Shown here: positions 26,093 to 51,613 of the stretch, piece after piece
How positions within the stretch are numbered: the stretch's first letter is position 1
Layout of the letters: each line of letters starts with the position of its first letter
Source of the DNA: Candidatus Fermentithermobacillus carboniphilus
GTDB taxonomy: Bacteria; Bacillota; Sulfobacillia; Fermentithermobacillales; Fermentithermobacillaceae
Reading direction: 5' to 3'
NCBI GenBank assembly: GCA_018208355.1
Contig: CP062796.1
Span: forward strand, 1,918,517 to 1,982,516
Length of the DNA: 64,000 nt
Position numbers and translations under genes: made by a program
The notes under the pieces: model-generated
Seen by the model: only the letters and a program-made list of their open reading frames with translations
What the model was told of the DNA's origin: nothing
Database searches by the model: none

Positions 26093-26112
26093 GCGGCGTA
26101 TCTTCCTGGTCT

Positions 26113-26775
26113 TCAGCAGATGAAGGGCAGAACCCAGTATGTGCCCCTCGATGGACCAGAGTTCTCGCCCTCGAATATGTCCCGCAGGTACTGTCGGCTT
26201 GCCTCCTCGGGTACCATTTCTGGAAGGATGACAGGGCCGTAAACCGATACTGTTCGAACTACCGTCCTCCCGAAGATGTCGTGCAGCACGTACGCATGCC
26301 CCAGGACAGCTGTGGCATCGTCCCCGGCGGCCCGGAGTGTGTTGCTCTCGGGGAAGTTCCGAAGATTCCGGAGAAGGCAGGCAGAGTCCGCACCTACCGC
26401 AACATCTCGCCCTTCGACGTAATCCGCTATGCAGCCGCATCCGCATGCCATGGCGATCACCGGATTTATGATCTGGTCCTCAGGAAGCCCGAGTCCGGCC
26501 TTCAGCATTGAGGCCAGGCCGATCATCTTGGGGCAGCAGTAGTTTTCCGGCGATATGGATACAGGGGTCGGAAGGAAGATGGCGTCCGCGCCGCAGTCGG
26601 TCAGCAGTTTCCTGGCGTGAGGAAAAGCGATCTTCACTGATATGCAGGGTTCGTCCGTGGGGCACAGCGTGAGCTGTTCAAGGTCCTTTGCGCTGGACGG
26701 AGGGCTTTCGACGAATTCAACTCCCAATTGGCTGAGAAATGTCCGATACAGCGGGAACAGGTAGTAGACTGTCAT
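26113..26775 (-). CDS. DUF2229 N-terminal domain protein (possibly the N-terminal half of a gene split from 24659-26092)
   Basis: MTVYYLFPLYRTFLSQLGVEFVESPP...CISVKIAFPHARKLL...AIFLPTPVSI matches the DUF2229 N-terminus. The ORF ends 20 nt before the next ORF's likely start in a different frame. Confidence 0.5.
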   Translation of the reverse strand: MTVYYLFPLYRTFLSQLGVEFVESPPSSAKDLEQLTLCPTDEPCISVKIAFPHARKLLTDCGADAIFLPTPVSISPENYCCPKMIGLASMLKAGLGLPEDQIINPVIAMACGCGCIADYVEGRDVAVGADSACLLRNLRNFPESNTLRAAGDDATAVLGHAYVLHDIFGRTVVRTVSVYGPVILPEMVPEEASRQYLRDIFEGENSGPSRGTYWVLPFIC

Positions 26776-26799: not shown

Positions 26800-28573
26800 T
26801 TTGCAGGTTGGGCTGCCCCAGGGGCAACGCCCGTGTCACACAGTAGATTGAATAGGCAATTAGGAAACGGTGGGGTCGCCAGTTACGCCATCTTTTAATT
26901 GGAGGTGCGCATATGAATGCAGTCGGCATTGATGTGTCAAAAGGTAGAAGCGTGGTCGCCATCCTGCGGCCCGGTGGAGAGATCGTTGCCCGCCCGTATG
27001 AGGTCAGCCATACGAGAGACGGGCTGGCGCAGTTGGCAACACGTCTGAAGGACCTGCCCGGGGAGACCAGGGTGGTCATGGAGCATACCGGGCATCACTT
27101 CGAGTCCATCGCCCGCTCCCTGCATGAAGCTGGCATCTTCGTTAGCGTTGTCAATCCGCTTTTGATCCACCAGTATGGCAACAATTCGATCCGGAACGTG
27201 AAGACCGACCGGAAAGACGCTGTCAAACTGGCGAAGTACGCCTTGGACCGCTGGGCTGAGCTGCCTGCCTACACACCTGAGGATGAGAACCGCAGGATGC
27301 TGAGGATCTACAATCGGCAGTACAACCAGTACACGAAAATCAAGGTGATGCTGAAGAACAACCTGATCGCCCTGCTAGACCAGACGTTCCCGGGCGTCAA
27401 CACCCTGTTTTCAAGTCCCGCCCGTGAGGACGGTCACGAGAAATGGGTGGATTTCGCCGCCAAGTTCTGGCACTGCCAGGAAGTGACAAAGTTGTCTGAG
27501 CGGGCCTTCAAAGAGCGTTACGCCAAGTGGTGCAAGCGGAACGGCTACTGTTACGCAGATGACGCAGCCGGGCGGATTTACTCGGCGGCACAAGGGCAGG
27601 TGGGCGTGCTGCCAGCCAATGCCGCGACTAAATGCCTGGTCACTCAAGCCATCGAGCAATTGAATGCTGTGGCAGGGACTCTAGCGGCTGTCGGCCGTGA
27701 AATGCGCCGTTTGGCCTCGCTTTTGCCTGAGGCAGCCGTCGTCGGGCAAATGTACGGCGTCGGCCCGACGCTGGGTCCCCAGCTTATCGCCGAGATAGGC
27801 GACGTGCGGCGTTTCCACAGCAAGAAGGCCTTGGTGGCCTTTGCCGGCATTGACGCCCCACCCTACCAGTCAGGGAACTTTGATGCAAAGAAACGCACGA
27901 TCTCCAAGCGCGGCTCCCCGGCCTTACGGAAAGCCCTGTTTCAGACCATCTGCGGCATTCTGAGGCTGGGCTCGCCGGATTCGGAGGTCTATCAGTATTT
28001 GGCCAAGAAACGGGCGGAGGGGAAGCACTTCTACGTCTACATCATGGCAGGAGCCAACAAATTCCTGCGCATCTACGTCGAACCGCAGGTCTTGACGGCT
28101 CAGACTATGCAGGATCTGCTCCGGGTTTTCGCCCTGCAGCAGGCGGTGAAGCGCTTCGTGTTTGAGGTACGCATTTGTTTGTGCCTGGGTGGCTACAGCT
28201 CCGGCACCTGCCAGTGCCAAAGATGTACCTGTTGCCCACTGCTGGTCTGCAGGTGGTGATGGCTACACCGACTTCGAGGTTGCTCTGGTCCACTGCGAGA
28301 ATTGAGAAAGTGGAATCAGTTGATTGTTCATGCACCACTGTTTTCCCTCCGGTTCAAGGGTTGTACGTTAGCAGTGGTACGTACTCTGGGTCAGCAGTAG
28401 CGAGATTCTAGTGGCGAAAGAGCTGGATAGTTGGTTCGATTGGGGTATATTTCTATGGCAGATTTCCTGCAGCGGGAAGAGAGGCGCGAGAAGAAATCCG
28501 GATTTCCGCTGACCCGTTATTTCTTCTCTGAGAAGGAGGCACGTTCATCACGTTTTGCTGTCATTTTGCTGTC
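26800..28573 (+). mobile_element. IS110-family insertion sequence: transposase (26913-28259) plus a ~315-bp conserved 3' non-coding region. The left boundary is not resolved. It lies immediately 3' of tRNA-Pro.
   Basis: The transposase has the IS110/IS116/IS902 N-terminal DEDD domain (MNAVGIDVSKG...) and C-terminal domain (GVGPTLGPQLIAEIGDVRRFHSKKALVAFAGIDAPPYQSGNF). The 3' ~450 bp, including the non-coding part, is duplicated at 19398-19846. Confidence 0.8.
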
Positions 28574-28986: not shown

Positions 28987-29520
28987 ATGACACATCAACT
29001 GACCCAAAAGGAAAGGATGCTGTTGAGTGACCAGTTAAGCCACGAAGAGATCTGCATCCAGAAGTACTCGGGGTACGCGGAAAAGGCAAAAGATCCTGCG
29101 GTGCGGAACATGTTCAACCAGTTTGCCCGGGAAGAGCAGAACCACTACAACATGTTGAACCAGTTCCTGGGCGGCCAAATGTCCGGGGAGCAGGGAAGTC
29201 AAGTACAGCAGGGAGGGCAGGCAGGTAAGGCAGGGAGTTTACAGGGCAGCGGGTTTACCCTGAACTTCGGTGAGTCTCAGGTTCAGGGGCGGTACGTGGC
29301 AGGAGATCAGGCAAAAGCTGATCAGCAGGATTCATCTATGCTTCAGGACATGCTTATGACGGAAAAATACGTTTCCGGGACCTACGATACAGCCATCTTT
29401 GAAACCGTCAACCCAACTATCAGACAGTCTCTTCAGCATATCCAGGAAGATGAGCAAAAGCACGGCGAAGCCATCGCCAAGTACATGAAGGAACATGGCA
29501 TGTACCAGGTTCAACAATGA
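28987..29520 (+). CDS. cotF: Spore coat protein CotF-like (two Coat_F domains)
   Basis: N-terminal Coat_F repeat (LTQKERMLLSDQLSHEEICIQKYSGYAEKAKDPAVRNMFNQFAREEQNHYNMLNQFL) and a C-terminal repeat (LMTEKYVSGTYDTAIFETVNPTIRQSLQHIQEDEQKHGEAIAKYM), separated by a Gln/Gly-rich linker. Confidence 0.75.
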   Translation: MTHQLTQKERMLLSDQLSHEEICIQKYSGYAEKAKDPAVRNMFNQFAREEQNHYNMLNQFLGGQMSGEQGSQVQQGGQAGKAGSLQGSGFTLNFGESQVQGRYVAGDQAKADQQDSSMLQDMLMTEKYVSGTYDTAIFETVNPTIRQSLQHIQEDEQKHGEAIAKYMKEHGMYQVQQ

Positions 29521-29771
29521 CCGAGTGACTTGAAACAACGGCCGAAAGGTGATGGCGGCACTCTCCCAAAGCCCTGGGCTGGCGTGTCACGATCGACACC
29601 CTGCGTCCGGGGCTTCTTTTCCTGCATAATAACCTCAGAACGGTACATCTCGATGCATGGTAGGATCGAGAGTCTTTTTCGGCGAATTATTCTTGTCGGT
29701 GAGTTCTAAAGGGTCGTCCTTGTCCGGGGTTATCGTCTGCCGACGCTTGCCATCCAATTGGAGGTTTTCCC

Positions 29772-31592
29772 ATGTCGTACCTTTCCGAGGTAGGCGGTGT
29801 TGCTCAGGAAGTGTGCGACGCCATTGCCTCCGTGCTGGGCGTCGACGTTGAAATAGTTGATGATATGCTGGTAAGGATCGCGGGAACCGGCAAGTACCGC
29901 TCTCGGGTCGGTTGGTTTCTCGGAAGCGAAGGTGTTGTATACAAGCACGTCCTGCGTACCGGCAAGGGGGCGCTCTTAGCCAATCCCGGTAAAGAAGCAA
30001 TTTGTTCTATGTGCTCGAGGGCAGGGAATTGTGAGGAAACGGCGGAACTGTCTTCCCCGATAATCGTGGATGGTAGAACGGTAGGTGTAATCGGTCTTGT
30101 TTGTTTTGACCAGGAGCAGCGAGATCGACTCCTTTCTAGGATAGACTCACATAAGGAGTTCATCGGCCACATGGCGGGGCTCTTGGCAGCAAAGGCAGTC
30201 GAATCTCACATGTGGATGGAGAAAAAACTTGCTGCCGAAATCATAATGTTGCTCTTGGACAGGATAGATGAGGCCGTCATCGCCGTTGACCATCTCGGGA
30301 AACCCATCTACCTGAACCGCCGGGCTCGGAAAACATTTGAAATTCCCAACAGTGCGTCTCCTTTAGAGGATCACCCTGAATCAAAGCCATTCCGCGCGGC
30401 CATGGCCGTCCTGAGAGACGCCTTATCTTCCGGAAAACGGTACAGCCAAAGCGAGATATTCATGGATACTGGTACCGGGGAACAAGGTTTTATGGTATCT
30501 ACGAGCGTCCTCAGTGACGGCGGGAAAAACCTGGGTGCCATAGCTTCCTTCAGGCCGGTTTCGGAACTCCACCGGTGGGCGTATGACCTCACGCACGGGA
30601 GCGCCGGAGCGGTATTCGGTGTGGACTCACTTATCGGACAAAGTCGTTCCATAGCGGAACTAAAAGAGATTGCCCTCAAAGTTGCTAAGAGTCCTTCCAC
30701 CGTCCTTATCAGGGGGGAGAGCGGGACGGGCAAGGAACTTCTGGCGAGAGCCATCCACTCGGCCAGCGACCGGAAAGATAAGCCTTTTGTGGCCGTAAAC
30801 TGTGCAGCTATACCGGATGGCCTCTTGGAAAGCGAACTTTTCGGGTACGAGGAGGGGGCGTTCACCGGCGCCAGAAAGGGCGGCAAGCCGGGGAAATTTG
30901 AGATCGCCGACGGAGGAACGTTGTTCCTCGATGAGATCGGAGACATGTCTTTGCACCTCCAATCCAAACTATTGAGGGTTCTCCAGGAGCGCCAGGTTGA
31001 GAGACTGGGCTCCAACAAGCCCAGACGTTGTGACGTCAGGATCATTGCCGCCACCAACCAGGATTTGGAACGCAAAATGCAGAACGGGGAGTTCAGAGAC
31101 GATCTCTATTTCCGGCTGAGTGTCATACCGATATACATTCCTCCGCTTCGTGAAAGGCCAGAAGATGTCGAACCGTTGGTGCGTCACTTCGTCCGAAAAT
31201 ATGCGGAAATCATGGGCAAAAAGATCGACGATGTGGAACCTTCTGCATTGGAGCTCCTTAAGTCCTATTCTTGGCCCGGGAATGTCCGGGAGCTCGAGAA
31301 CGCCATCGAATATGCGGTAAACTTTGAGACAAAGGAGATTCTTACTGTAAAGAGCCTTCCGGCAAGAATACGGAGTTGTGGGAATGCTCAGGAGAAGGGC
31401 TTTGCCTCCGGGCTGCGGATCGAGGGTCGTGTGTCAGGAATTAAGGCTGCGGAGATCGACTTGATAAGGCAGGCGCTTAAAAAATACGGGACCAGCTATG
31501 AGGGAAAAAAACGAGCCGCGAGGGAATTAGGGATAGGTATTGCCACACTGTACAGGAAGATTTCCCGCTATCGGATCGAGGTATCAAACTGA
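29772..31592 (+). CDS. Sigma-54-dependent transcriptional activator (N-terminal sensory region, AAA+ sigma-54 interaction domain, C-terminal Fis-type HTH)
   Basis: [15 protein letters not shown] (Walker A), the GAFTGA-type loop ([15 protein letters not shown]), Walker [13 protein letters not shown] and a C-terminal HTH ([16 protein letters not shown]). A GGAGG ribosome-binding site precedes the ATG. Confidence 0.85.
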
Positions 31593-31753
31593 TAGGTCCA
31601 TATCATTTTGAGATTAACCCGCGAGCTTCTTCCAGTGATTCAAGATTCCAATATTGCGAGCGGATGATTGGGGGCCTTTTTGCTGGCGTCCAAAGCTTTC
31701 TATCAAAGTGATAAACCGCCCTCACGCGATTCCCAGAACGCACCGTCTTCTTG

Positions 31754-31785
31754 CATGGCATATCCGGGGCATATTTCTTGCTTTT
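31754..31785 (+). promoter_or_regulatory. Candidate sigma-54 (-24/-12) promoter upstream of the YgeY-like operon
   Basis: Two overlapping GG-N10-GC matches: TGGCATATCCGGGGCA and GGGCATATTTCTTGCT (-24 GG / -12 GC with correct spacing). They lie ~120 nt upstream of the first gene and directly downstream of the sigma-54 activator gene. Confidence 0.4.
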
Positions 31786-31901
31786 GCTAGTGTTCGGAGA
31801 ATCATCGAGCAGATGGCGACGGTTTAAGCCGAGCCTTTCCTTATTAACTGGGGCTTGAAGAGTTGGGACAAGGCACTACGTCTACAAGGGAGGCCAGAAA
31901 C

Positions 31902-33092
31902 TTGATCGATGACAAGAGAGCGGACGATGTAGTGGAACTATGCCGGAAGATGATCCGGCAGCCAAGCTTATCCGGACACGAAGAAGGTATGGCGGACCTC
32001 GTGCGTGAGACCATGAATGCTTTGGGCTACGACGAGGTGAATACCGACAAGTACGGTAACGTCGTTGGGAGGATCTCCTTTAAGCGGCCCGGGAAGAGGA
32101 TATTGTTCGAAGGACACATGGATCACGTGGACGTGGGAGATCTCTCGAAATGGACGGTAGATCCGTATGGTGCCACCGTCCGGGATGGGAAGATATTCGG
32201 GCGAGGAGCCACCGACATGAAAGGGAGCCTCGCTGCCATGATCGCCGCGGGAGCTTACCTCAAGGCAGACCACTACGATGACCTCGAGGGCGAAATCCTC
32301 GTTGCTGCCTCGGTTCACGAGGAATGTTTTGAAGGCGTCGCTTCCAGGGAAATCGGGGAGCGGTACCGGCCCGATTATGTGGTCATAGGGGAGGCTTCTT
32401 CGCTCAACGTCAAGAGAGGGCAAAGGGGGAGAGCCGAGGTTGTGCTTGAAACCCACGGCAAATCGGCTCATTCGTCCAACCCCGAAGAAGGTATAAATGC
32501 GGTCAAGAAGATGATTAAACTGCTTCAGGAGATAGAAAACTCATACGTTCCCCCAAAACAGGATGTACTGGGAAAAGGCATACTGGAGCTCACCGACATT
32601 ATTTCGTCGCCGTATCCGGGAGCCAGCGTAGTGCCTGCGAGATGCAGAGTTACGTTCGACAGACGCCTTCTAGTTGGAGAAACCGAAGAAAAGGTCCTCG
32701 CAGCCATACAGGACATCATCGATAAAATCGCCGCGCAAGACCCGGAGTTCCGGGCCACGGTGAGCATTGCGATAGGGGAAGACAAGTGTTATACAGGTGA
32801 ACCCATAAGGGCCAAGAGATTTGCTCCCGGTTGGCTTTTCCCGGAAGATCACGAGTTTGTGATAAAAGCGATGAAAGGACTCAAGAAAGCCGGCCTTTCG
32901 CCGAATCTCTCCCACTACGCTTTCTGCACCAACGGCAGCTACTATGCGGGCATTGCAGGGATTCCCACCATCGGATTTGGGGCGTCGCGGGAAGAACTGG
33001 CCCACGTGGTAGACGAGTATGTCGAAATTGACCAGCTCCTGAACGCATGCAAGGGATATTACGCCATAGCCCTGGAGGTTCTCCGGAGGTAG
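31902..33092 (+). CDS. YgeY-family M20 hydrolase (ArgE/DapE-like)
   Basis: M20 ligand and dimerisation motifs, plus KRGQRGRAEVVLETHGKSAHSSNPEEGINA, which recalls the YgeY-type RGQRGR block. Start taken at the TTG at 31902 with a GGGAGG site 8 nt upstream; the track ORF starts at 31863. Confidence 0.65.
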   Translation: MIDDKRADDVVELCRKMIRQPSLSGHEEGMADLVRETMNALGYDEVNTDKYGNVVGRISFKRPGKRILFEGHMDHVDVGDLSKWTVDPYGATVRDGKIFGRGATDMKGSLAAMIAAGAYLKADHYDDLEGEILVAASVHEECFEGVASREIGERYRPDYVVIGEASSLNVKRGQRGRAEVVLETHGKSAHSSNPEEGINAVKKMIKLLQEIENSYVPPKQDVLGKGILELTDIISSPYPGASVVPARCRVTFDRRLLVGETEEKVLAAIQDIIDKIAAQDPEFRATVSIAIGEDKCYTGEPIRAKRFAPGWLFPEDHEFVIKAMKGLKKAGLSPNLSHYAFCTNGSYYAGIAGIPTIGFGASREELAHVVDEYVEIDQLLNACKGYYAIALEVLRR

Positions 33093-33098
33093 CTCTAA

Positions 33099-34352
33099 AT
33101 GAGTAAAATCTTCGAACTACAGTGCGTTTTGTGCGGAAAGCGGTACCGCGAAGGAGAGGTGGAATATACCTGCCCATCCTGCGGCATGGACGGCACCTTA
33201 GACGTGCTTTACGACTATGACGTGGCGCGCAAGGCAATCAGCAGGGAAGCGCTGGCACAGAACAGGGATTACAGCTTGTGGAGATACTGGCCCATATTAC
33301 CCGTTCACGAACGAGATCACGTACCGCCGCTGTCGGTTGGTTGGACCCCGCTGTACGAGAGCGACAGATTGGCAGCGCAGTACGGAGTGAAGCGACTTTT
33401 CATCAAAGACGACGGGCGGAATCCCACAGGTTCCTTGAAGGACCGTGCCAGTGCCATAGCAGTCGGACGGGCTCTCGATCTAGGAAGGAAGGAGGTGAGT
33501 TGTTCCTCCACGGGAAACGCTGCAAGTTCTCTTGCCGGGTTTTGTACAGTTGCTTCTCTGAGAAGCACCATTTTTGTCCCCGAATCCGCTCCCGAGGCTA
33601 AAGTCACGCAGCTTCTCGTCTACGGTGCGCGTGTGGTACTGGTCAAGGGCGACTATAACGATGCGTTCAACCTGTCAGAAAAGGCCATCGAACGTTTCGG
33701 CTGGTACAACCGGAACTGCGCCATAAACCCGTATCTAGTCGAAGGCAAGAAAACTTGCGGCCTCGAGGTGGCAGAGCAGTTAGGTTGGGAAGTTCCGGAC
33801 TATTTGTTCGTCGCCGTTGGTGATGGGTGCATCATAAGCAGTTTCTACAAGGCTTTCCATGATCTCATAAAGCTCGGTATCACCGACAGGATGCCCCGTA
33901 TCGTAGGTGTGCAAGCAGAAGGATGTAAGCCTCTTGTCGAGGCCGTTAAGAGAGGTGAGTTTCGGGTCAAGGCTTTCGAAAAAGCGGATACGATAGCGGA
34001 TTCGATCGCGGTACGTCGGCCCAGAAACTGGGCCAAGGCTCTTCGGGCCGTACGGGAAAGTCAGGGTACGATGGTTTCGGTATCTGACGGGGAGATACTC
34101 TCGGCCATCCGTGAACTTGCCTGTAATACCGGTGTGTTTGCCGAACCTGCAGGCGCAGCTTCATTTGCCGGTTTCCGAAAGATGGCTCTATCAGGTCAAC
34201 TCCGGCAAGATGAAACCGCAGTAGTGGTCGTGACGGGAAATGGACTCAAAGATATCTCAAGTGCCAGGAAAGCCGTAGGGGATCCGATAGTCAGCCCGCC
34301 GGACATCGAGGCGTTCGTGAGGATCCTGAGCCGGGTAAAAGGTTTAGCATAA
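33099..34352 (+). CDS. Threonine synthase-like fold-type-II PLP enzyme with an N-terminal C4 zinc-ribbon
   Basis: CVLCGKRY...CPSCG zinc-ribbon, then a GSLKDRA PLP-lysine motif (compare ThrC TGSFKDRG) and a glycine-rich PLP phosphate loop (VAVGDGC). Confidence 0.65.
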   Translation: MSKIFELQCVLCGKRYREGEVEYTCPSCGMDGTLDVLYDYDVARKAISREALAQNRDYSLWRYWPILPVHERDHVPPLSVGWTPLYESDRLAAQYGVKRLFIKDDGRNPTGSLKDRASAIAVGRALDLGRKEVSCSSTGNAASSLAGFCTVASLRSTIFVPESAPEAKVTQLLVYGARVVLVKGDYNDAFNLSEKAIERFGWYNRNCAINPYLVEGKKTCGLEVAEQLGWEVPDYLFVAVGDGCIISSFYKAFHDLIKLGITDRMPRIVGVQAEGCKPLVEAVKRGEFRVKAFEKADTIADSIAVRRPRNWAKALRAVRESQGTMVSVSDGEILSAIRELACNTGVFAEPAGAASFAGFRKMALSGQLRQDETAVVVVTGNGLKDISSARKAVGDPIVSPPDIEAFVRILSRVKGLA

Positions 34353-34446
34353 GCAGTCCGTCATGTTCGAGGATACGGGGAACACCGTTTCCGCGGCAAT
34401 TGGCCGGTGCTTGATCAAAGATACAAACCTTGGAGGTCTGTCTAGG

Positions 34447-35835
34447 ATGTCGAAACCGCTGGTCTGGGGACCCACTTTCGATGAAATGCTTCATCCCGAA
34501 AAGATAGACCCTGAAATCAGGAAAAAAGCTCTTGAGGCAAGGGTTAAAGACCCCCTTTCACCAATAAATCTTTTCAATATCACGTGGAAGCAAGACAATG
34601 GTTCCCCATCGTACATGGTCCTGCCGAAAGAGCTGACGGGAGTGGATGCCAACATAATCGTCCTTTACGCGAGGGACTTCCCCACCGGGTCACACAAGGT
34701 GGGCGCTACGTACTCGGTCACCCTCGAAAAGCAGCTTCTCGGGGAAATTACCCCCGGAGAAGTTTCCCTCGTCTTTCCTTCCACCGGCAACTACGGGATA
34801 GGCGGGGCATGGGTGGGACCGAGGATGGGCTACGATACCCTGGTCGTGCTTCCCGAACTCATGAGTCGTGAGCGATTCGAGATGATCGAGAGATACGGAG
34901 CAAGATACATCAAGACTCCGGGGTGCGAATCCAGCGTCAAGGAAATCTACGACAAATGCAGGGAACTTTCGAAGGATCCTTCCATAAAGATACTCAACCA
35001 GTTTCAGGAGATGGCCAATTACAGGTTCCACTATTACGTGACAGGAAACACGGTAAAAGAGGTGGTCGAAGACCTTAAGCGAAAGGGCACTGGCAACGGA
35101 CGCTGCGCCGCTTTTGTGTCGGCCATGGGTTCTGCGGGGACCATCGCGGCAGGCGACCGTTTGAAGCAAGTCTTTCCAGAAACAAAAATCGTGGGCCTGG
35201 AACCTATCCAGTGCCCGACCCTGTACTGCAACGGGTACGGAGACCACGACATCCAAGGTATCGGCGACAAGCATGTCACGTGGATCCACAACGTCCTCAA
35301 CATGGACTGCCTCATGTGCATCGACGACATGGAGTGCAAACTCGGACTACAGCTCCTTACGGACCCCGTCGGGATGGATTACCTTTCGGGAAGCGTAGGG
35401 ATCTCGCCCGGCATCGTCCAGGAGATGTCCACGATATTTGGTATCTCGGGGGTCTGCAATGTTCTCGGTGCAATCAAGACGGCCAAGTATTACAGGCTGA
35501 ATAGCAGCCACAACGTGGTCACCATCCTCACGGACACGATAGACAGGTACAGGTCTGTCATGGCCGATCTCGATCGGAAGTTCGGCAGGATGACGAAGGA
35601 GACGGCGGCACAGCGGTATTACGGGATCTTCAAGAACGTCAAGCTCGACTACGTGCAGGAGGGGACGAGAGACACAAGAGACAGGTGGTTCAACCTGAAG
35701 TATTACACCTGGGTTGAGCAGCAGGGGAAAACGGTATCGGAGTTAAACGCCCAGCGGAACCCCGACTGGTGGCTCCAAGAACAAGCGAAGGTCGCGGAGA
35801 TTGATGCCCAGCTTAAGCAGGCGAGGGGTTTTTAG
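34447..35835 (+). CDS. Fold-type-II PLP-dependent enzyme (diaminopropionate ammonia-lyase/OrtB-like) with a ~60-aa C-terminal extension
   Basis: The block GSHKVGATYS aligns with the DpaL-type PLP-lysine block (AFKMLGGAYA). Also the glycine-rich SAMGSAGT loop. Start at the ATG at 34447 with a GGAGG site. Confidence 0.55.
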   Translation: MSKPLVWGPTFDEMLHPEKIDPEIRKKALEARVKDPLSPINLFNITWKQDNGSPSYMVLPKELTGVDANIIVLYARDFPTGSHKVGATYSVTLEKQLLGEITPGEVSLVFPSTGNYGIGGAWVGPRMGYDTLVVLPELMSRERFEMIERYGARYIKTPGCESSVKEIYDKCRELSKDPSIKILNQFQEMANYRFHYYVTGNTVKEVVEDLKRKGTGNGRCAAFVSAMGSAGTIAAGDRLKQVFPETKIVGLEPIQCPTLYCNGYGDHDIQGIGDKHVTWIHNVLNMDCLMCIDDMECKLGLQLLTDPVGMDYLSGSVGISPGIVQEMSTIFGISGVCNVLGAIKTAKYYRLNSSHNVVTILTDTIDRYRSVMADLDRKFGRMTKETAAQRYYGIFKNVKLDYVQEGTRDTRDRWFNLKYYTWVEQQGKTVSELNAQRNPDWWLQEQAKVAEIDAQLKQARGF

Positions 35836-35913
35836 GATTCAATCTAAACCGAGCCCCTAGAGGAATTGCCGAAGTTTACTTCTCTGATCATCTTCGGGGA
35901 AAGGAGGATCAGT

Positions 35914-37512
35914 GTGGCAGAGTTCGACCTTATCATAAAAAACGGTATGGTGGTAGATGGTACCGGTACTCCGGGTCAGCAGGCGGACGTCGCTATCGTA
36001 GGTGACAAAATCGCGGCCATAGGGCGGTTAGAAGGCTCTGTGGCAAGAAAGACTATCGATGCGACCGGGAAGGTTGTGTGTCCCGGTTTCATAGATACCC
36101 ATAGCCATTCGGATCTCCTCGTGTTGGACCAACCGTATATCGACCCGAAGGTGCGGCAAGGAGTTACCACGGAGGTCATAGGTCAGGATGGCATGTCCCT
36201 GGCCCCCGTGCGGGATGAGTACCTGTCTGCATGGAAAAAGGCAATGGCAGGTCTGGAAGGGAGTTACGACGTTGATTGGGACTGGCGTTCGGTAAGGGAG
36301 TATCTCGATAGAATAGAGTCTATGGATTTGGGCCCCAATTTTGCCTTTCTTGCACCTCACGGAAATATCAGGTTGACAGTTATGGGGCTGGACAACAGAG
36401 AACCCACTCCCGACGAACTTGAGAAGATGCAGGACCTCCTCAGCCAATGCCTCCGTGAAGGCGCCTTTGGGCTGTCAACCGGAATGATTTATCCGCCGTG
36501 CTGCTACGCGAAGACTTATGAGTTCGTCGCTCTGGGAAAAGTGCTGGCCGATGCCGGTGCCGTCTTTGTCACGCATCAGAGAAGCGAGGCTGACGACATA
36601 CTGAATTCGGCGGATGAGATACTGAAAATCGGCCGTGAGTCTGGCTGCCGGGTCCATTTTTCCCATTTCAAGGTCGCCGGGAAGAAGAATTGGTCAAAGA
36701 TTGACCCTTTATTCGAAAAACTCGATAGGGCCCGCGCCGATGGCATGACGATCTCTTTTGACCAGTATCCCTATGTTGCTGGCAGTACCATGCTGAGTGT
36801 GATACTTCCACCGTGGGCTCACGACGGTGGGACTGATAGACTCCTTGAAAGGCTCAAGGACCCGGTGCTCCGGGAAAAGATGAAAAAAGACATCAGAGAG
36901 GGGATCCCGGGCTGGGATAATTTTGTGGACTTCGCCGGTCTCGACGGCATTTTCGTGACGTTCGTGAAAACCGAAAAGAACCAGGATGCAATAGGAAAGA
37001 ATCTCGTGGAGTTAGGCGAGATGCGTAGGAAAGAGCCCCTGGACGCCGCATTTGATCTCCTCTTGGAAGAAGAAAACGTCGTTGGGATGGTGGATTTTTA
37101 CGGGACGGAAGAACACGTGGTTAGGATCATGACTCGCCCGGAGCAGAACGTCTCGACTGACGGGATAATGGGGGCAAAACCGCATCCAAGGCTCTACGGG
37201 ACCTTCCCGCGGATTCTCGGTAAATACGTCCGCGAAGAGAAGGTCATGTCCCTCGAAACGGCAATCTACAAGATGACCGGAAAGCCTGCGTCGGTTCTGG
37301 GGCTTAAGGACCGCGGGATCTTGAAAGAGGGATTTTTCGCCGATGTAGTCATCTTTGATCCCCAGACGGTCAAAGACACAGCCGATTACGTGAACCCCAG
37401 GCAGTATCCGGTGGGGATAGAGTATGTGTTTGTCAACGGCAAGATGATCGTCGAGTGCGGTCAACCGAGACCTCAAAGAGCGGGCAAAGTCCTGAGATTC
37501 TCCGGGAGGTGA
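35914..37512 (+). CDS. N-acyl-D-amino-acid deacylase (D-aminoacylase) family amidohydrolase
   Basis: D-aminoacylase-type N-terminus (DLIIKNGMVVDGTGTPG...VAIVGDKIAAIG), metal ligands (GFIDTHSHSD) and a C-terminal amidohydrolase_3 region (IEYVFVNGKMIVECGQ). Start at the GTG at 35914, 7 nt after AAGGAGG. Confidence 0.75.
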   Translation: MAEFDLIIKNGMVVDGTGTPGQQADVAIVGDKIAAIGRLEGSVARKTIDATGKVVCPGFIDTHSHSDLLVLDQPYIDPKVRQGVTTEVIGQDGMSLAPVRDEYLSAWKKAMAGLEGSYDVDWDWRSVREYLDRIESMDLGPNFAFLAPHGNIRLTVMGLDNREPTPDELEKMQDLLSQCLREGAFGLSTGMIYPPCCYAKTYEFVALGKVLADAGAVFVTHQRSEADDILNSADEILKIGRESGCRVHFSHFKVAGKKNWSKIDPLFEKLDRARADGMTISFDQYPYVAGSTMLSVILPPWAHDGGTDRLLERLKDPVLREKMKKDIREGIPGWDNFVDFAGLDGIFVTFVKTEKNQDAIGKNLVELGEMRRKEPLDAAFDLLLEEENVVGMVDFYGTEEHVVRIMTRPEQNVSTDGIMGAKPHPRLYGTFPRILGKYVREEKVMSLETAIYKMTGKPASVLGLKDRGILKEGFFADVVIFDPQTVKDTADYVNPRQYPVGIEYVFVNGKMIVECGQPRPQRAGKVLRFSGR

Positions 37513-37517
37513 ATCCA

Positions 37518-37808
37518 ATGAACGTCAACGAAAGGGATTACGATATCCGCGAGGTTGAAGTGGACGAAAGGTTTACGATTGCCAAACGAGAGATGCTCAT
37601 AACCTTCGTGGTTCAGCTTGCTTACACTTTCCTGATGCTGGTTGTCGCCTACAGTCTGGGTAAAGGAGATCCCACCTTGTACCGGTTCGTGATGGGAATG
37701 CCAGAGTGGTGGTTCTGGTGCCTGATCATCACCTTTGGGTTCCTCGGTCTGATTTACTACCTGGTGAGGCGAGTCTTCAAAGATATTCCCATAGATCCCT
37801 GGCTTTAA
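37518..37808 (+). CDS. Small two-TM membrane protein, DUF997/YhdT-like (typically paired with a sodium:solute symporter)
   Basis: 96 aa with two hydrophobic helices. It sits immediately upstream of an SSS-family transporter, as for E. coli yhdT-panF. GGAGGTG ribosome-binding site. Confidence 0.5.
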   Translation: MNVNERDYDIREVEVDERFTIAKREMLITFVVQLAYTFLMLVVAYSLGKGDPTLYRFVMGMPEWWFWCLIITFGFLGLIYYLVRRVFKDIPIDPWL

Positions 37809-37833
37809 TGGTGCTTGAAGGGAGTGAATTGGC

Positions 37834-39321
37834 GTGGAACTTACCGGAGCCAGAACGTCGGTTATAATCGCGTTCGTCCTCTATTCGCTAGCGCTGCTTC
37901 TCATCGCGGAGTTCAGCAGGCGAAGGATGGCCAAGAGCAGGCTCGACCAGTACGTTAGCGAGTTCTACACCGGAGGACGAGGGATGGGTTCCTGGGTCGT
38001 CGCCTTCATGGTGGCGGCAGGACTTTGCAGCGCAGGTACGTTCCTTGGAAGCCCGGGCCTTGCCTATAGTGTGGGCCTTGTTTTTCCGTTTGTGGTGATG
38101 GCCCAATCATTCATGAACTTTGTGGTCCTGGGGCAAGTGGGAAAGAAAATCGGCATTGTCGCGAGACGAGTGGACGCCCAGTCTTACCTCGACATTCTCA
38201 CCGAGAGGTACAACCACAGTAACTTCGTCCGGTGGTTCGGTGCTCTGGCCATCTGGATATTCTACACATCCAATATAGTCGCTCAGTTGAGTGGCGGAAC
38301 CCGTCTTATCCAGGTAATGACGGGGTTCCCGTATATTTGGTCTCTCCTTGCGTTCGGCCTTGTTGTCCTCGTATATACCGTTATGGGCGGAATCAAGGGA
38401 GTATCGACCGCGATTTTCTTCCAGGGCCTGGTCATGACGATATGTATCGTGATCCTTTTCGGAGTGCTTCTGGGCAAGATCTCGCCGATGGAAAACGCGT
38501 ACCGCCAAATCATTGAGACCAATCCCAAACTGGTTTCTCCCTGGGTATGGACGCCCGCATATTCTTTTTCAATGTTCGTTTCGCTTGGCCTCGTCACCAT
38601 AGGACAGCCCCACGGAGCCATGGCTTGTCTCACCTACAAGGATACAAAAGCTATGCACAGCGCAATGATTATAGGTGCGGCGGTAGTGGCCGTTTGGAGC
38701 GCGATGATCGTTTGGGCCGGAAATCTTGCTCACGCGGTTGTCCCGAAACTTTCTGTGCCTGATTACGTGATACCGTACGTAGCGGTGAACCTGATGCCAG
38801 GATGGGTAGCGGGCCTTGTTCTGGCGGGAGTCGCTGCTGCCATACAATCCACGATAGCCGCCGTGGTCCTGGTCATCAGCTCGGCCCTCGTTCGAGACAT
38901 GTATCTCGTGCTAAAGCCGACCAAAGATCCGAAAAAAATTCGGCGTGTGACGCTCGGTGCTACGGCAGTGGCGGCTCTCGTCCCTGTGCTCATCGCCATT
39001 AAGCCTCCGGCTGCTCTGCAGTGGTTCATCCTGTTTGCCATAGGAGGCCTCACGTCTTCGTTCTTCTGGCCCATGCTCCTCGGGCTATACTGGTGGCGTG
39101 CCAATGAGTACGGCGCCATAGCCGGGATGGTGGGCGGTATGGCTACCTTCATACTGGTTCAGGGTAAGATAATACCTTTCAACCTCGGAATGCATGGGAT
39201 TGTCATGGGGCTGATAGTTTCAGGGATCCTAACGGTCGCGGTCAGTCTTGCCACTCCTAAACCTCCGAGAAGAATCATTGAACTGTTCTGGGGTAAAACC
39301 AGGCCCGTCGAAGTCACATAG
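37834..39321 (+). CDS. Sodium:solute symporter (SSS family, PanF/PutP-like)
   Basis: 13-TM profile with SSS signature regions (GGRGMGSWVVAFMVAAGLCSAGTFLGSPGLAY...GLVVLVYTVMGGIKGVSTAIFFQG). Confidence 0.8.
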   Translation: MELTGARTSVIIAFVLYSLALLLIAEFSRRRMAKSRLDQYVSEFYTGGRGMGSWVVAFMVAAGLCSAGTFLGSPGLAYSVGLVFPFVVMAQSFMNFVVLGQVGKKIGIVARRVDAQSYLDILTERYNHSNFVRWFGALAIWIFYTSNIVAQLSGGTRLIQVMTGFPYIWSLLAFGLVVLVYTVMGGIKGVSTAIFFQGLVMTICIVILFGVLLGKISPMENAYRQIIETNPKLVSPWVWTPAYSFSMFVSLGLVTIGQPHGAMACLTYKDTKAMHSAMIIGAAVVAVWSAMIVWAGNLAHAVVPKLSVPDYVIPYVAVNLMPGWVAGLVLAGVAAAIQSTIAAVVLVISSALVRDMYLVLKPTKDPKKIRRVTLGATAVAALVPVLIAIKPPAALQWFILFAIGGLTSSFFWPMLLGLYWWRANEYGAIAGMVGGMATFILVQGKIIPFNLGMHGIVMGLIVSGILTVAVSLATPKPPRRIIELFWGKTRPVEVT

Positions 39322-39365
39322 CTTGGTCCGCTTGAACTTCTGCTTGAACTTTTTGATACATGATA

Positions 39366-39401
39366 CCGGCTGCAGGGATCATCTCTGCAGCCGGAGTTTT
39401 T
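39366..39401 (+). terminator. Rho-independent terminator after the symporter gene
   Basis: CCGGCTGCAGGgatcatctCTGCAGCCGG followed by AGTTTTT. Confidence 0.6.
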
Positions 39402-39681
39402 GTGCCCGTTACCTATCACGCTGCCCGATCGTCACCGGCGGAGTCGGGGCCGGTTTCAGGCATGCTGGCTGCGTGTTCACGAGTCCGGAACCTTGTCATC
39501 CGACGCTGGTTCTGAACGAAGAGAGTAATTGAGTGGTATAGGGACGAGTCACGAGCTAGGTGATGAGATAATTCTGAACGAAAATAGTGATTGAGTACTG
39601 AGCGGGCGGGCGAGATTCCGGGCCTGGCCTGCGGGTACCGGTTCCATTTTTCTACCGCACAGAAGGAGGTTAAATTCGCAC

Positions 39682-41889
39682 ATGAGAAGCCTTTCCAAGA
39701 TTCTGGCATGCCTCGTGCTCGGCGGGCTGTTGCTGGCATTATTTCCATCTGCAGCCTACGCCAGGCTCAATGCTTACGAGTGGAAGCTGATGCAGACACT
39801 CCAGGAGGCTGAGGCTTCAGGAGACACAGCCACTATGGTGAAGGTCCTCCTAGAACTCATAGATATCGAGGAACGCTACGACGACCTCGACTCCCACCAG
39901 CGCCTCGCGCCCTATTACCAGAAGCTCGGACGCTACTATGACAGCATAGGCGAATTTCAGAAGGCCCGGGAGTGCTTTCTGAAAGCGGGTTTTCACTGGC
40001 GGGCGATGAACGCTCCGGAGTCCGCGCTGGCGGATGATGCCAGGGCGAGGCAGTTGAATATCGAACTTGAACTCTTCCGTGAAGTTCCGGCCCAGGATTT
40101 GCCCGGCTATCCTCTTGCTCTCCACGAACCTGCGTGGGGAACGTACCTTGGAGGTCATTTTCCTCTGGACGGGAACGTGGGGATCAAGTATAGCAGAGTT
40201 CCCCTATATTACGGGAAGCCCCATGCCATCCTGGAATACGTCGAGTGGGGAAATCCCGTGCCCAACAATACCCTTGGACAGGTGAGGCAACTGGGAGTTC
40301 CACTGGAACTGGCCTTACAGCCCGCGTCAGGCCTTGAAAACGTGAAAGAAGACTCTTACATACGGAACCTTTTGACTCAGCTCAATTCCCTGGGGGTGCC
40401 GGTTTTCCTCCGATTCGGGGGAGAAATGAACGGTGGCTGGGTGATCTGGGGCAAGAACCCCTCGGTCTTCATAGAAAAATTCAGGCTGGTTGCGGACCTC
40501 GCCCACAAAATTGCTCCCAATGTGGCGATGGTCTTTTGCCCCAACCACGTGCCTGAGGATTACGAGAAGTATTACCCGGGTGACGAATATGTTGACTGGA
40601 TCGGGGTCAACTTCTACAGCGACTACTACATGGCAGGCGATCCTCACCTGCCTGAAACCACTCAGGCCATTTTCCAGGCCGGGAAGAAAGCCAACCCGGT
40701 AGATAAGCTCATCAAAATCTATGAGATGTTCTCTGATAGAAAACCCATAATGATAGGAGAGTTTGGGGTAAGTCATTACTCTGTCAGCACGAAAGAGGAC
40801 TGCCTGGATTGGGGGCTGAACCAGCTTTCGCAGGTGTACGGGTACCTACCCTTGAAGTTTCCCAGGATCAAGGCGGTGTTTTACTTCAGCGCGGACCAGG
40901 GGAGTCCCGACTATAAACCTTCCAACCGGTGGTCAAACTACTCCCTCGGGAGGGAACAGTTCAGATCCAGGTACCTTGAGGTCACGAAAAGCCCGTATTA
41001 CCTGTCGGGGAAGGATAGGGTTTCGCCTGTAAGGTATGCAAGCCTCCAGGAGGCGGGTCTTATCCCCGGGGAGAACAAAATCCTGGCTTACGTGCGGCTT
41101 CCGTATCCTTTTGCCGGAAAAGTTCGGTACGAGTTTGACGGGAAGATTGTAGGGGAAGCAGACTATGCTCCTTTTGCCATCTCGTTGAATATCCCGGAAA
41201 ACCTGGAGGGGATTCACCTTCTCACGGTGAGGACGTGGTATGCCGGAGGCAAAGAAGGGCCTGCCAAAACCTACGCCATAGACGGGGAAACGTTGCGGGT
41301 CCATCCTCTGTCAGGCGACCAGGTTCCGGTTGCCGCGTTTTCTGATCTCGAAGGGCACTGGGCCTTCCGGGAAATCGAAAAACTGACGGGTCTCGGAATC
41401 TTGAAAGGATACGGGGATGGGAGTTTCAGACCTGACGGCCCGATCACCAGAGCAGAATTCTTAAAGGTTCTCTTTGAGGTGGCGGGTATAACCGCGAAAA
41501 CCCCTGAAACAGAACCGGTGTCCCCCTATGAGACTTCACATTGGGCGGCGGCTCTCATCGATGCAGCAAGAGAGCGAAAGGTTATCCGGGATTCTCGCGG
41601 ACTTGACATCGCCGGCACGTTCCTCCCCGACGAGCCTTGTCCCCGGTGGGAAATGGCCGTTTATGCTGCCAGGGCCATTGGACTCCGGCCGAAGGACGTG
41701 GCCCGGACGAGTTTTTCCGACGATTCCGAGATACCGGAGGAGTGGAAGGGGACAATTCAGGCGGCAGTCGATGCGGGACTCATCCGGGGTCTTGACGGTA
41801 GAAGGTTTGGCCCGCGAGAGAGCATGACCCGGGCTCAGGCCTGCGTGATGGCCGTCCGGATCATGAGATACCTCAGCTCGGTCAAATGA
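39682..41889 (+). CDS. Secreted SLH-domain protein with a GH26-like (beta-mannanase-type) catalytic domain. Signal peptide, N-terminal helical/TPR-like region, three C-terminal SLH repeats.
   Basis: Signal peptide MRSLSKILACLVLGGLLLALFPSAAYA. GH26-type block (VFLRFGGEMNGGWVIWG...IMIGEFGV). Three SLH repeats (FSDLEGHWAFREIEKLTGLGILKGYGDGSFRPDGPITRAEF; HWAAALIDAA...; FSDDSEIPEEWKGTIQAAVDAGLIRGLDGRRFGPRESMTRAQA). Confidence 0.65.
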   Translation: MRSLSKILACLVLGGLLLALFPSAAYARLNAYEWKLMQTLQEAEASGDTATMVKVLLELIDIEERYDDLDSHQRLAPYYQKLGRYYDSIGEFQKARECFLKAGFHWRAMNAPESALADDARARQLNIELELFREVPAQDLPGYPLALHEPAWGTYLGGHFPLDGNVGIKYSRVPLYYGKPHAILEYVEWGNPVPNNTLGQVRQLGVPLELALQPASGLENVKEDSYIRNLLTQLNSLGVPVFLRFGGEMNGGWVIWGKNPSVFIEKFRLVADLAHKIAPNVAMVFCPNHVPEDYEKYYPGDEYVDWIGVNFYSDYYMAGDPHLPETTQAIFQAGKKANPVDKLIKIYEMFSDRKPIMIGEFGVSHYSVSTKEDCLDWGLNQLSQVYGYLPLKFPRIKAVFYFSADQGSPDYKPSNRWSNYSLGREQFRSRYLEVTKSPYYLSGKDRVSPVRYASLQEAGLIPGENKILAYVRLPYPFAGKVRYEFDGKIVGEADYAPFAISLNIPENLEGIHLLTVRTWYAGGKEGPAKTYAIDGETLRVHPLSGDQVPVAAFSDLEGHWAFREIEKLTGLGILKGYGDGSFRPDGPITRAEFLKVLFEVAGITAKTPETEPVSPYETSHWAAALIDAARERKVIRDSRGLDIAGTFLPDEPCPRWEMAVYAARAIGLRPKDVARTSFSDDSEIPEEWKGTIQAAVDAGLIRGLDGRRFGPRESMTRAQACVMAVRIMRYLSSVK

Positions 41890-51314: not shown

Positions 51315-51613
51315 CGGGTAAGTAACGTCTAGAGGCAGTTTCCTGTGAATTAGGCAAAACACGGGTGCTGGCGATTCAAGTTGCCACATATCGCGCGAAC
51401 TACGTGACTGCGGAAGGACGTTAGGAGGGTGGGCTCGAAGAAATCCAGGGCTCGCCCTCCTCACGTATAGAAGTCATTGTACAAAGGTCTTAATTCTGTT
51501 GGTCGCGACAAAGACTCCTGAAGGAAAGAGTCGGGCATGAGTTGGAGCGTCGTCAAAATGCAGCGTTAGGGTCATTGCCGGAGGTGATTCCCGTGTATGT
51601 AATTCTGGCGGGG

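Follow-up and report, generated by a model that had tools for sequence, protein, structure and literature searches.

A group of seven genes of Candidatus Fermentithermobacillus carboniphilus, contained in a stretch of 64,000 nucleotides of CP062796.1 (referred to as the window, within which all positions are counted), probably constitutes a self-contained sigma-54-dependent catabolic operon of a fermentative Firmicute. On balance, we favour the view that this operon serves the import and degradation of doubly carbamoylated 2,3-diaminopropionate (DAP), a late intermediate of anaerobic uric acid degradation. The genes, identified by means of an open reading frame (ORF) list and profile searches, are co-directional on the plus strand between positions 29772 and 39321 (Table 1). 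They code for a sigma-54 enhancer-binding protein (EBP), a YgeY-family M20 amidohydrolase, two fold-type-II pyridoxal phosphate (PLP) enzymes resembling ThrC and CysK, respectively, a homologue of D-aminoacylase (DAA), a small DUF997 protein and a sodium:solute symporter. The organism, a thermophilic fermenter not yet in culture, comes from soil heated by a coal fire and is described as scavenging peptides and amino acids (PMC10215811).

The anaerobic reductive uric acid pathway was reconstructed by two studies in 2025 (Li 2025, Liu 2025; PMC12507026; bioRxiv 10.1101/2025.04.24.650524; commentary PMC12990295). It starts with the reduction of urate to 2,8-dioxopurine, which is dearomatised by YgfK or UacX, whereupon SsnA and HyuA open the rings to yield 2,3-diureidopropionate. 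YgeW (along with carbamate kinase) and YgeY strip off both ureido groups to leave DAP, which is converted by YgeX/DpaL to pyruvate and ammonia (PMC12507026; 10.1101/2025.04.24.650524). In C. difficile, UacY, a D-aminoacylase homologue, stands in for YgeW/YqeA; CdHyuA and CdUacY convert ureidomethylhydantoin to albizziin in vitro, and YgeY together with YgeX transforms albizziin to pyruvate (PMC12507026). The conversion of albizziin or 3-amino-2-ureidopropionate to DAP by YgeY was shown for the E. coli enzyme only, and the data on UacY and YgeY activity towards these substrates come from the C. difficile and E. coli proteins (PMC12507026; 10.1101/2025.04.24.650524).

Judged by their relatives, the two hydrolases of the operon apparently belong to the subtypes found in UacY-type uricolytic clusters, because their homologues are embedded in clusters containing UacX, SsnA and Xdh. 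The window YgeY scores 482.5 bits on NF009555 (cut-off 321) and 280.9 bits on TIGR03526 (cut-off 321.5). It is 50-73% identical to M20 genes adjoining DAA/UacY homologues and 33% identical to clostridial YgeY adjoining YgeW. In a sequence search, DAA matches the PDB entries 1m7j (7e-94) and 3gip (3e-86), and it keeps the metal and substrate carboxylate residues of 1m7j, namely His67, His69, His220, His250, Lys252, Tyr283, Asp366 and Arg377. The zinc ligand Cys96 of 1m7j and 3gip is, however, exchanged for an aspartate (residue 92 of the window protein; QDG versus NCG), which is invariant in the UacY-like family and may be the marker of a ureido-hydrolysing clade.

To this family we assigned 80 loci obtained by a metagenome scan with a D-aminoacylase family alignment, their gene content being determined by tblastn with a protein panel. 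In total, the locus comparison comprised about 140 loci (given below by their L numbers where needed), related loci being read with flanks of 10 kb on either side. Within the DAA loci the gene order DpaL-YgeY-DAA(-RidA) is recurrent, and in eight of them (L089, L100, L103, L105, L107, L108, L115, L117) DpaL-YgeY-DAA runs straight into AmhB-UacX-AmhA-Xdh. The M20 genes located between DpaL and DAA in L089, L100, L103, L105 and L117 are 50-58% identical to the window YgeY, and an M20 gene of this kind is situated between XDH and DAA in L118. Locus L118 (563-11602) represents a complete uricolytic cluster with the order SsnA (NF005540, 629 bits)-UacX-like-ThrC-like-CysK-like-Se-dependent XDH (TIGR03311, 1341 bits)-YgeY-DAA, in which the ThrC-like and the CysK-like gene occupy the usual place of YgeX. 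Altogether, DAA homologues of 52-59% identity reside in ten uricolytic clusters free of YgeW (L118, L070 and the eight named above). The complete clusters among them combine homologues of the window YgeY and DAA (50-59% identity) with genes like SsnA, HyuA and UacX and with a subunit of the xanthine dehydrogenase type. Four loci with stand-alone modules (L072, L085, L106, L109) harbour an extra amidohydrolase between YgeY and DAA which is 28-32% identical to the SsnA/HyuA-like AmhA of L001; this enzyme may be a hydantoinase shifting the entry into the pathway up to ureidomethylhydantoin.

With regard to the last step, comparison of gene content suggests that the ThrC-like enzyme and its CysK-like partner jointly substitute for YgeX/DpaL. 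Among all fetched loci, ThrC-like and CysK-like are found together in 33, DpaL alone in 30 and DpaL together with CysK-like in five, while the combination of DpaL with ThrC-like is absent. Across the approximately 140 loci ThrC-like never occurs along with DpaL and always along with CysK-like. In the subset selected via DAA, CysK-like accompanies ThrC-like in 7/7 cases and DpaL in 1/27 (Fisher p = 1.5e-6, whereby the loci are phylogenetically related and Fisher tests overstate their independence). The original prediction, an earlier note on this DNA, had described the second PLP enzyme as an addition to the known neighbourhood. Two PLP enzymes are indeed present, but the alternation from locus to locus points to a pair replacing YgeX/DpaL and not to an add-on. 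Since ThrC-like and DpaL are mutually exclusive, whereas CysK-like and DpaL are not, the ThrC-like enzyme may be regarded as the functional counterpart of DpaL. CysK-like would then supply something which DpaL does not need, a candidate being the handling of the D-isomer. D-specific hydantoinase and aminoacylase steps would deliver the D-isomer of DAP. E. coli YgeX accepts both DAP isomers (PMC12507026).

A genuine DpaL (TIGR03528, 572-620 bits; cut-off 532) is present in sister modules, namely those of Clostridium cochlearium (L057; EBP-DpaL-YgeY-SSF-DAA), Sporolituus thermophilus (L058; EBP-DpaL-YgeY-DAA-MFS) and Anaerosphaera multitolerans (L060). Further examples are a Tissierellia contig (L061) with RidA-DpaL-YgeY-DAA-SSF and Wukongibacter baidiensis (L002) with EBP-DpaL-RidA-Na:Ala symporter-CysK-like, while L005 repeats the order of the window with EBP-YgeY-ThrC-like-CysK-like-DAA. 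The genes of the ThrC-like/CysK-like pair are adjacent in Bacillota and lie within about 1.5 kb of each other in Chloroflexota, Acidobacteriota and Synergistota. Purine clusters of Chloroflexota and Acidobacteriota combine the pair with YgeY, YgeW, carbamate kinase, an SsnA-like amidohydrolase, adenine/guanine-type deaminases and F420 genes, DpaL being absent. In the purine clusters of Anaerolineae, a gene for a family-2 glycosyltransferase is consistently located between ThrC-like and CysK-like (L020, 8689-9738, and other Chloroflexota loci).

The ThrC-like enzyme shares 35-38% identity with threonine synthases of known structure (PDB sequence matches of 1e-56 to 1e-73) and passes the threonine synthase models NF006050 (346.7 versus 303 bits) and TIGR00260 (220.5 versus 167.1 bits). 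In 121/121 members of its family, however, three threonine synthase motifs which are intact in the enzymes of Aquifex, Thermus and Bacillus are replaced, STGNT by STGNA, NPxR[LI]EG by NP[YFW]L[VLI]EG and VGNAGN by VGDGC; in addition, an invariant ADSI is found in place of ATAI. In the window protein these replacements change a threonine to alanine, an arginine to leucine and an asparagine to aspartate. We take the three original residues to bind the phosphate of the substrate, as we assume from T. thermophilus structures. The loss of these phosphate residues and the gain of two aspartates would fit a substrate which bears an ammonium instead of a phosphate group. The S-x-K-D-R motif containing the PLP lysine is retained. 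On the DpaL model NF006058 the enzyme attains 51.7 bits (cut-off 276), and it yields no match to TIGR03528. Its N-terminal zinc ribbon domain has a structural counterpart in the cysteate synthase CapA2 (9k3c; TMq 0.79), a ThrC relative acting on a C3 amino acid. Fold searches against the PDB returned generic threonine synthase and CysK/CBS neighbours only, so that no reaction is assigned by structure. We propose that the ThrC-like protein is neither a threonine synthase nor a DpaL but a DAP-converting enzyme.

The second PLP enzyme, originally predicted to be DpaL/OrtB-like, turned out to be CysK/CBS-like, as it gives no OrtB match, reaches no more than 19.7 bits on the DpaL model NF006058 and has no hit to TIGR03528. 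A PALP domain is present, and the enzyme stays below every cut-off of the CysK, CysM, CBS and SbnA models (TIGR01139, 120 versus 351 bits; TIGR01138, 87 versus 394 bits), its PDB sequence matches to CysK/CBS amounting to about 1e-26. The AlphaFold2 model (pLDDT 90.5) displays the CysK/CAS/CBS core with a TM score of about 0.8 at about 25% identity, flanked by some 60 extra N-terminal and some 100 extra C-terminal helical residues for which there is no solved counterpart. The lysine motif, the STGN asparagine loop and the GISG serine are present, and visual alignment pairs a Gly-rich GSAGT segment with the phosphate loop of CysK. Family members from Bacillota, Chloroflexota, Acidobacteriota and Verrucomicrobiota are 59-86% identical. 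Members of 59-63% identity also occur without nearby purine or DAP genes in Verrucomicrobiota (L037-L041, L048, L053, L056) and Chloroflexota (L027, L028), where their neighbours code for UDP-glucose dehydrogenase, an Fe-S protein, an NYN-domain protein, a transglutaminase and argininosuccinate lyase. That the CysK-like enzyme might supply the Mo-hydroxylase with selenium or sulfur was considered and set aside in view of its presence in operons free of Xdh (the window, L002, L005-L007).

Some indication of the reaction performed by the pair may be gained from its surroundings. RidA is encoded within 6 kb in 11/35 DpaL loci compared to 1/33 pair loci (p = 0.003). In Synergistota (L059, 8754-21248; L063, 3457-16535) the arrangement reads LysR, then YgeY-(YgeY)-ThrC-like-GlyA-CysK-like-DAA-TRAP transporter-formate-tetrahydrofolate ligase, the CysK-like protein being 40% identical and the gene for serine hydroxymethyltransferase (GlyA; NF000586, about 645 bits) lying between the two PLP genes. 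The near-absence of RidA and the presence of GlyA and formate-tetrahydrofolate ligase suggest that the pair may avoid free 2-aminoacrylate, and hint at serine as product, with serine and C1-tetrahydrofolate units lying downstream of the pair. The pair could thus embody an unrecognised two-enzyme DAP route, spread over at least five phyla, which operates by beta-replacement (e.g. DAP + H2O -> serine + NH3) without free 2-aminoacrylate and possibly with stereo-inversion of the D-isomer, in which case the stand-alone operon would be a cross-feeding module. We put this forward as a tentative proposal with the balance of probability against it. If it were true, non-purinolytic fermenters would, by means of the operon, live on uricolysis intermediates excreted by other members of the community. 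A search of the literature for the ThrC-like/CysK-like pair, albizziin lyases, diureidopropionate and the phosphate-site residues of threonine synthase led to the 2025 uricolysis papers only.

The regulatory region of the operon is conserved as well. The EBP consists of a GAF/PAS-like sensory N-terminus, a central domain with the Walker A motif GESGTGKE at residue 315 and GAFTGA at residue 362, and an HTH_8 domain (27 bits). Its best NCBIfam match is PrdR with 399 bits, far below the cut-off of 795. Full-length orthologues with 39-68% identity head like modules in eleven loci (L002, L005-L007, L012, L057, L058, L060, L103, L106, L110). The sigma-54 promoter-like site GGGCAT-N5-TTGCT falls within the range of about 31754-31785 for which a -24/-12 promoter had originally been predicted. 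Agreeing with the consensus at 9/11 positions it is weak when taken alone, and the consensus pattern is not enriched over the window (32 matches versus 24.8 expected). The significance of the site derives from its being kept in related loci and not from its own score: the equivalent position agrees at 10-11 of the 11 positions in each of the eleven loci just listed, compared to a background of 0.027 per kb for matches of at least 10/11 in 2 Mb of fetched DNA.

Aligning the intergenic regions of the window and L005 disclosed two conserved boxes, from which a pattern scan for TATCA-N3-TGATA proceeded; a seed-based search for inverted repeats around the promoter gave no match. About three copies of this palindrome are situated 50-300 nt upstream of the sigma-54 promoter in 11/12 related loci, usually including a tandem pair spaced by 17-22 nt, whereas the exact motif has a background of 0.019 per kb. 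Of the twelve related loci with the EBP, eleven show the 10-11/11 promoter directly behind it, and ten of these eleven also contain about three copies of the motif. In the window, the three putative EBP sites are among only five motif matches in 64 kb, 0.73 being expected. EBP, promoter and upstream sites are arranged as expected where a promoter depends on an EBP, which strongly suggests sigma-54 control and a regulon conserved across Firmicutes. The EBP would bind to the three sites and, on sensing its ligand, activate the promoter at 31767-31782. As to this ligand, our guess is DAP or a ureido derivative thereof. Since the Wukongibacter operon features the same EBP type and motif without adjacent hydrolases, DAP or a close compound is a plausible inducer.

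Homologues of Xdh, UacX, SsnA, HyuA and YgeW are absent from the 64 kb window. Three further amidohydrolases encoded therein were considered as SsnA or HyuA and discarded, one being Xaa-Pro-dipeptidase-like (43466-44698), one an unassigned amidohydrolase (50151-51314) and one NagA-like (51542-52801); none of them resembles the SsnA/HyuA-like genes of L001. Likewise, among the 23 DAA loci with 6 kb or more on either side, 18 lack the upper pathway and possess transporters (SSF, MFS, TRAP or Na:Ala type) and regulators of their own. The lack of upper purine genes in the window and the stand-alone relatives suggest a module for scavenging late uricolysis intermediates. In L065 the same DUF997-symporter pair (40% and 64% identity) follows RidA-DpaL-YgeY-DAA. 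We presume DUF997 to be an accessory subunit of the symporter and propose, on the basis of this gene context, that the latter imports the ureido- or diamino-propionate substrate. The use of unrelated SSF, MFS, TRAP and Na:Ala carriers by other versions of the module argues for the substrate of the pathway rather than for pantothenate.

The following course of events can be envisaged. The DUF997/PanF-like symporter would import a ureido derivative of DAP, D-2,3-diureidopropionate being the best candidate and albizziin or 3-amino-2-ureidopropionate being alternatives. By analogy to the published enzymes, the UacY-type DAA is proposed to hydrolyse the 2-ureido (N2-carbamoyl) group of the D-isomer and YgeY to remove the 3-ureido (N3-carbamoyl) group, so that DAP, 2 CO2 and 2 NH3 would be formed. 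Subsequently, the ThrC-like and CysK-like enzymes would channel DAP into central metabolism as pyruvate or possibly serine. The original prediction of a sigma-54-activated operon that takes up and degrades an N-modified or D-configured amino acid or diamino acid thus gains backing from comparative genomics and the 2025 literature, as does the kinship it had noted to the E. coli ygeW-ygeX-ygeY-hyuA neighbourhood (PMC12507026; 10.1101/2025.04.24.650524). The carbamoyltransferase and carbamate kinase which it had found missing would be dispensable because UacY would take over the role of YgeW/YqeA, as in the C. difficile-type pathway (PMC12507026). It had further called the pathway uncharacterised, which no longer applies to the hydrolase steps but still holds for the PLP pair and the stand-alone organisation, and it had considered the substrate not assignable from sequence, while a class can now be proposed, i.e. 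2,3-diureidopropionate or albizziin degraded to DAP.

It is conceivable, though in our estimation unlikely, that the operon forms the end of a complete reductive uric acid or purine route the Xdh-type dehydroxylase, UacX/YgfK, SsnA and HyuA of which are encoded elsewhere in the chromosome. The substrate would then be made inside the cell, and the symporter would serve for DAP, albizziin or a purine, for example. Complete clusters containing close homologues of YgeY and DAA do exist (L070, L103, L107, L117, L118), some of the EBP orthologues head such clusters (e.g. in L103), and the inspected DNA covers 64 kb of a 2.3 Mb genome. Yet, the 29 kb before and the 25 kb after the operon contain no upper-pathway homologue, and 18 of the 23 comparable loci are stand-alone, too, with transporter and regulator of their own. 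In addition, the known urate permeases belong to the NCS2 family and are not of the SSS type. The genome paper lists the fermentation of peptides, amino acids and N-acetylglucosamine, whereas the word "purine" does not appear in its main text (PMC10215811). Rather improbable seems a substrate unrelated to purines, i.e. an N-acylated or N-carbamoylated D-amino acid such as N-acyl-D-serine, -D-threonine or -D-cysteine, or a cell-wall D-peptide, with the PLP enzymes acting as dehydratases or desulfhydrases on the freed amino acid. Deacylation is a generic activity of M20 enzymes, the D-aminoacylases form a broad family with PDB relatives acting on N-acyl-D-Glu and other N-acyl-D-amino acids, and ThrC and CysK scaffolds accomplish beta-elimination on serine or cysteine. 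The description of the organism as a peptide and amino acid scavenger (PMC10215811) would also agree with such a substrate. It is opposed by the sister modules which hold an equivalog-level diaminopropionate ammonia-lyase at the position of the PLP enzymes (TIGR03528, 572-620 versus 532 bits), by the occurrence of the same YgeY and DAA subtypes inside bona fide uricolytic clusters with SsnA and Se-dependent XDH, and by the common regulator and binding motif, which point to one regulon. Finally, the annotations could be taken at face value, in which case a threonine synthase serving biosynthesis, a cysteine synthase and an importer of pantothenate would lie beside two hydrolases by chance. This we deem hardly credible, although the cut-offs of NF006050, TIGR00260 and TIGR02119 are passed and public records name homologues "threonine synthase" and "cysteine synthase family protein". 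The threonine synthase motifs are replaced throughout the family (121/121), the CysK-like protein falls far short of all CysK/CysM cut-offs, and the genes are part of one putative sigma-54/EBP operon together with a transporter and hydrolases; the genes with which they share synteny across phyla are purine-catabolic.

Several observations nevertheless weigh against the assignment of the operon to the breakdown of carbamoylated DAP. As mentioned, the window YgeY does not reach the TIGR03526 cut-off and shares only 33% identity with YgeW-linked clostridial YgeY, while the putative identity of DAA as UacY is deduced from gene context and the kept D-aminoacylase residues. The symporter passes the PanF equivalog cut-off and pantothenate transport is, therefore, compatible with its sequence. 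The reaction of the CysK-like enzyme may be more general than DAP metabolism as its gene stands alone in Verrucomicrobiota and some Chloroflexota. Upper pathway genes located elsewhere in the 2.3 Mb genome could turn the operon into an ordinary pathway end, and the common descent of the loci tempers the statistics of their gene content.

The features of the operon are compiled in Table 1. The original prediction placed a -24/-12 promoter behind an EBP gene, and after it six genes of one orientation and a terminator (39366-39401). It is borne out for all seven ORFs and their domain content, including the YgeY-type M20 hydrolase (NF009555, 482 versus 321 bits), the ThrC-like enzyme with its zinc ribbon, the D-aminoacylase homologue, predicted as an N-acyl-D-amino-acid deacylase, and the YhdT-like protein with an SSS symporter (TIGR02119, 347 versus 328 bits). 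Translation starts were reassigned from the positions of ribosome-binding sites and the lengths of homologues, by which four of them were moved. YgeY starts with TTG at 31899, 8 nt past AGGGAGG, the CysK-like gene with ATG at 34447, preceded by GGAGG and in accordance with homologues of 460-465 residues, DAA with GTG at 35914, 6 nt past AAGGAGG, and DUF997 with ATG at 37518 past GGGAGG. The 490-residue version of the CysK-like ORF has no exact-sequence match. The start annotated for it is probably mistaken, 34447 being the likely position. With the corrected starts, two intergenic gaps amount to 94 and 78 nt, so that the tight packing with gaps of at most 30 nt which had been claimed does not hold, in contrast to the co-directionality. 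The terminator hairpin (39366-39394; 39366-39404 with the T-run), which by its sequence is the strongest terminator-like site within 29400-39800, appears to close the operon.

Table 1. Features of the operon and its control region (positions within the window).
Feature	Position	Strand	Characteristics
Sigma-54 EBP	29772..31592	+	Pfam Sigma54_activat 246 bits, AAA_lid_14, HTH_8
Putative EBP site 1	31582..31594	.	TATCAAACTGATA; exact TATCA-N3-TGATA palindrome; overlaps end of EBP gene
Putative EBP site 2	31601..31613	.	TATCATTTTGAGA; one mismatch; 19 nt from site 1; box kept in L005 alignment
Putative EBP site 3	31701..31713	.	TATCAAAGTGATA; exact; 66 nt upstream of promoter; box kept in L005 alignment
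Sigma-54 promoter-like site	31767..31782	+	GGGCATATTTCTTGCT; GGGCAT-N5-TTGCT; 9/11 consensus positions, GG and GC intact
YgeY-family M20 amidohydrolase	31899..33092	+	NF009555 482.5 bits
ThrC-like fold-type-II PLP enzyme, N-terminal Zn ribbon	33099..34352	+	Two CxxC pairs
Long CysK/CBS-like PLP enzyme, 462 aa	34447..35835	+	PALP domain
D-aminoacylase homologue, UacY type (predicted)	35914..37512	+	PDB 1m7j 7e-94
DUF997 (YhdT-like) small membrane protein	37518..37808	+	PF06196 72 bits
PanF-like sodium:solute symporter	37834..39321	+	PF00474 205 bits; TIGR02119 347.4 versus cut-off 328
Intrinsic terminator	39366..39404	+	13-bp stem, 9 GC pairs, then AGTTTTTGTG

In the window, a gene for an IS110-family transposase (26913-28259) lies some 1.5 kb ahead of the EBP gene, given which the cluster may have been acquired or rearranged; a CotF/rubrerythrin-like gene (28987-29520) is located in between. 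The downstream flank is formed by a gene for an SLH/GH26 protein. A second compact cluster on the plus strand (50151-55861) codes for an amidohydrolase, a NagA-like deacetylase, a DUF1177 protein, a PRK10481-family protein and a PLP enzyme of Cys/Met metabolism. At 23625-26446 (minus strand) and 59636-61704 (plus strand) genes for a BcrAD/BadFG-type activator ATPase and the 2-hydroxyacyl-CoA dehydratase (HGD-D) family are present, which are typical of amino acid fermentation through 2-hydroxyacyl-CoA dehydration.

The reductive uric acid pathway was solved only in 2025 and is of interest for gout probiotics. While the hydrolase chemistry discussed here is that of this known, recently described pathway, three features appear to be new in relation to the accessible text of the 2025 papers, namely that YgeX gives way to the ThrC-like/CysK-like pair, that the lower module frequently stands alone and is equipped with an importer, and that EBP, promoter and TATCA-N3-TGATA form a conserved regulon. 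The last step of the pathway would consequently not be universal, as the pair is found in place of YgeX in loci of Bacillota, Synergistota, Chloroflexota and Acidobacteriota and in one record labelled Cyanobacteria. According to the accessible text of PMC12507026, the published survey scored any PF00291 protein as YgeX. Because the public names of the pair are "threonine synthase" and "cysteine synthase", surveys at the level of PF00291 cannot separate it from YgeX. Two abundant and highly conserved PLP families hereby gain a concrete substrate hypothesis. That the lower half of the pathway often stands alone with transporter and regulator suggests an exchange of diureidopropionate, albizziin or DAP within communities, and the conserved EBP and its motif offer a handle for regulon prediction and inducible expression.

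Compared to known systems, the operon most obviously resembles the C. difficile-type UacX/UacY cluster (PMC12507026), in which a YgeY-family M20 enzyme and a D-aminoacylase homologue are likewise combined in the absence of YgeW/YqeA and followed by a fold-type-II PLP enzyme. It differs in lacking Xdh, UacX, SsnA and HyuA, in possessing the DUF997/SSS importer, in harbouring the ThrC-like/CysK-like pair instead of YgeX/DpaL and in its probable control by a sigma-54 EBP; the accessible text of PMC12507026 mentions neither a sigma-54 regulator nor the TATCA-N3-TGATA motif. With the YgeW-type pathway (2025 bioRxiv; Li et al. 2025) it would share the removal of two ureido groups from 2,3-diureidopropionate, a YgeY-family member and a PLP enzyme acting on DAP. 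In contrast, a hydrolytic UacY is predicted instead of the phosphorolytic YgeW with carbamate kinase, whereby no ATP would be gained from the ureido group; YgeX is missing and YgeY is of a different subtype. The pair itself has the operon position and the neighbours of DpaL/YgeX (YgeY, UacY or YgeW, transporter, EBP) and the same fold-type-II PLP architecture. It is, however, not homologous to DpaL/YgeX (TIGR03528) at the family level (51.7 bits versus 276 for ThrC-like; 19.7 bits for CysK-like), comprises two proteins for one, and is rarely accompanied by RidA (1/33 versus 11/35 loci).

Considered individually, the ThrC-like enzyme has the core fold and the S-x-K-D-R motif of class-II threonine synthases and a counterpart of its N-terminal domain in CapA2 (9k3c), but deviates from both in its three replaced motifs, its catabolic context and its score on the cysteate synthase model (100 bits; cut-off 325). 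The CysK-like enzyme agrees with CysK, CysM, CBS and SbnA in core fold (TM score about 0.8) and catalytic motifs, whereas it is only about 25% identical to them, comprises 462 instead of about 300-320 residues and is linked to purine/DAP catabolic genes. Like the PrdR-type EBPs of amino-acid-fermenting Firmicutes, the regulator combines a sensory N-terminus with a GAFTGA-bearing AAA+ domain and HTH_8, and belongs to a catabolic operon in a fermenter; it is distinguished from them by its score (399 versus the cut-off of 795), by another target operon and by the binding motif defined here. Finally, the DUF997 and symporter genes form the same pair as E. coli yhdT-panF (TIGR02119, 347.4 versus 328 bits), with the difference that the pair of the window is embedded in a catabolic operon and recurs behind RidA-DpaL-YgeY-DAA in L065.

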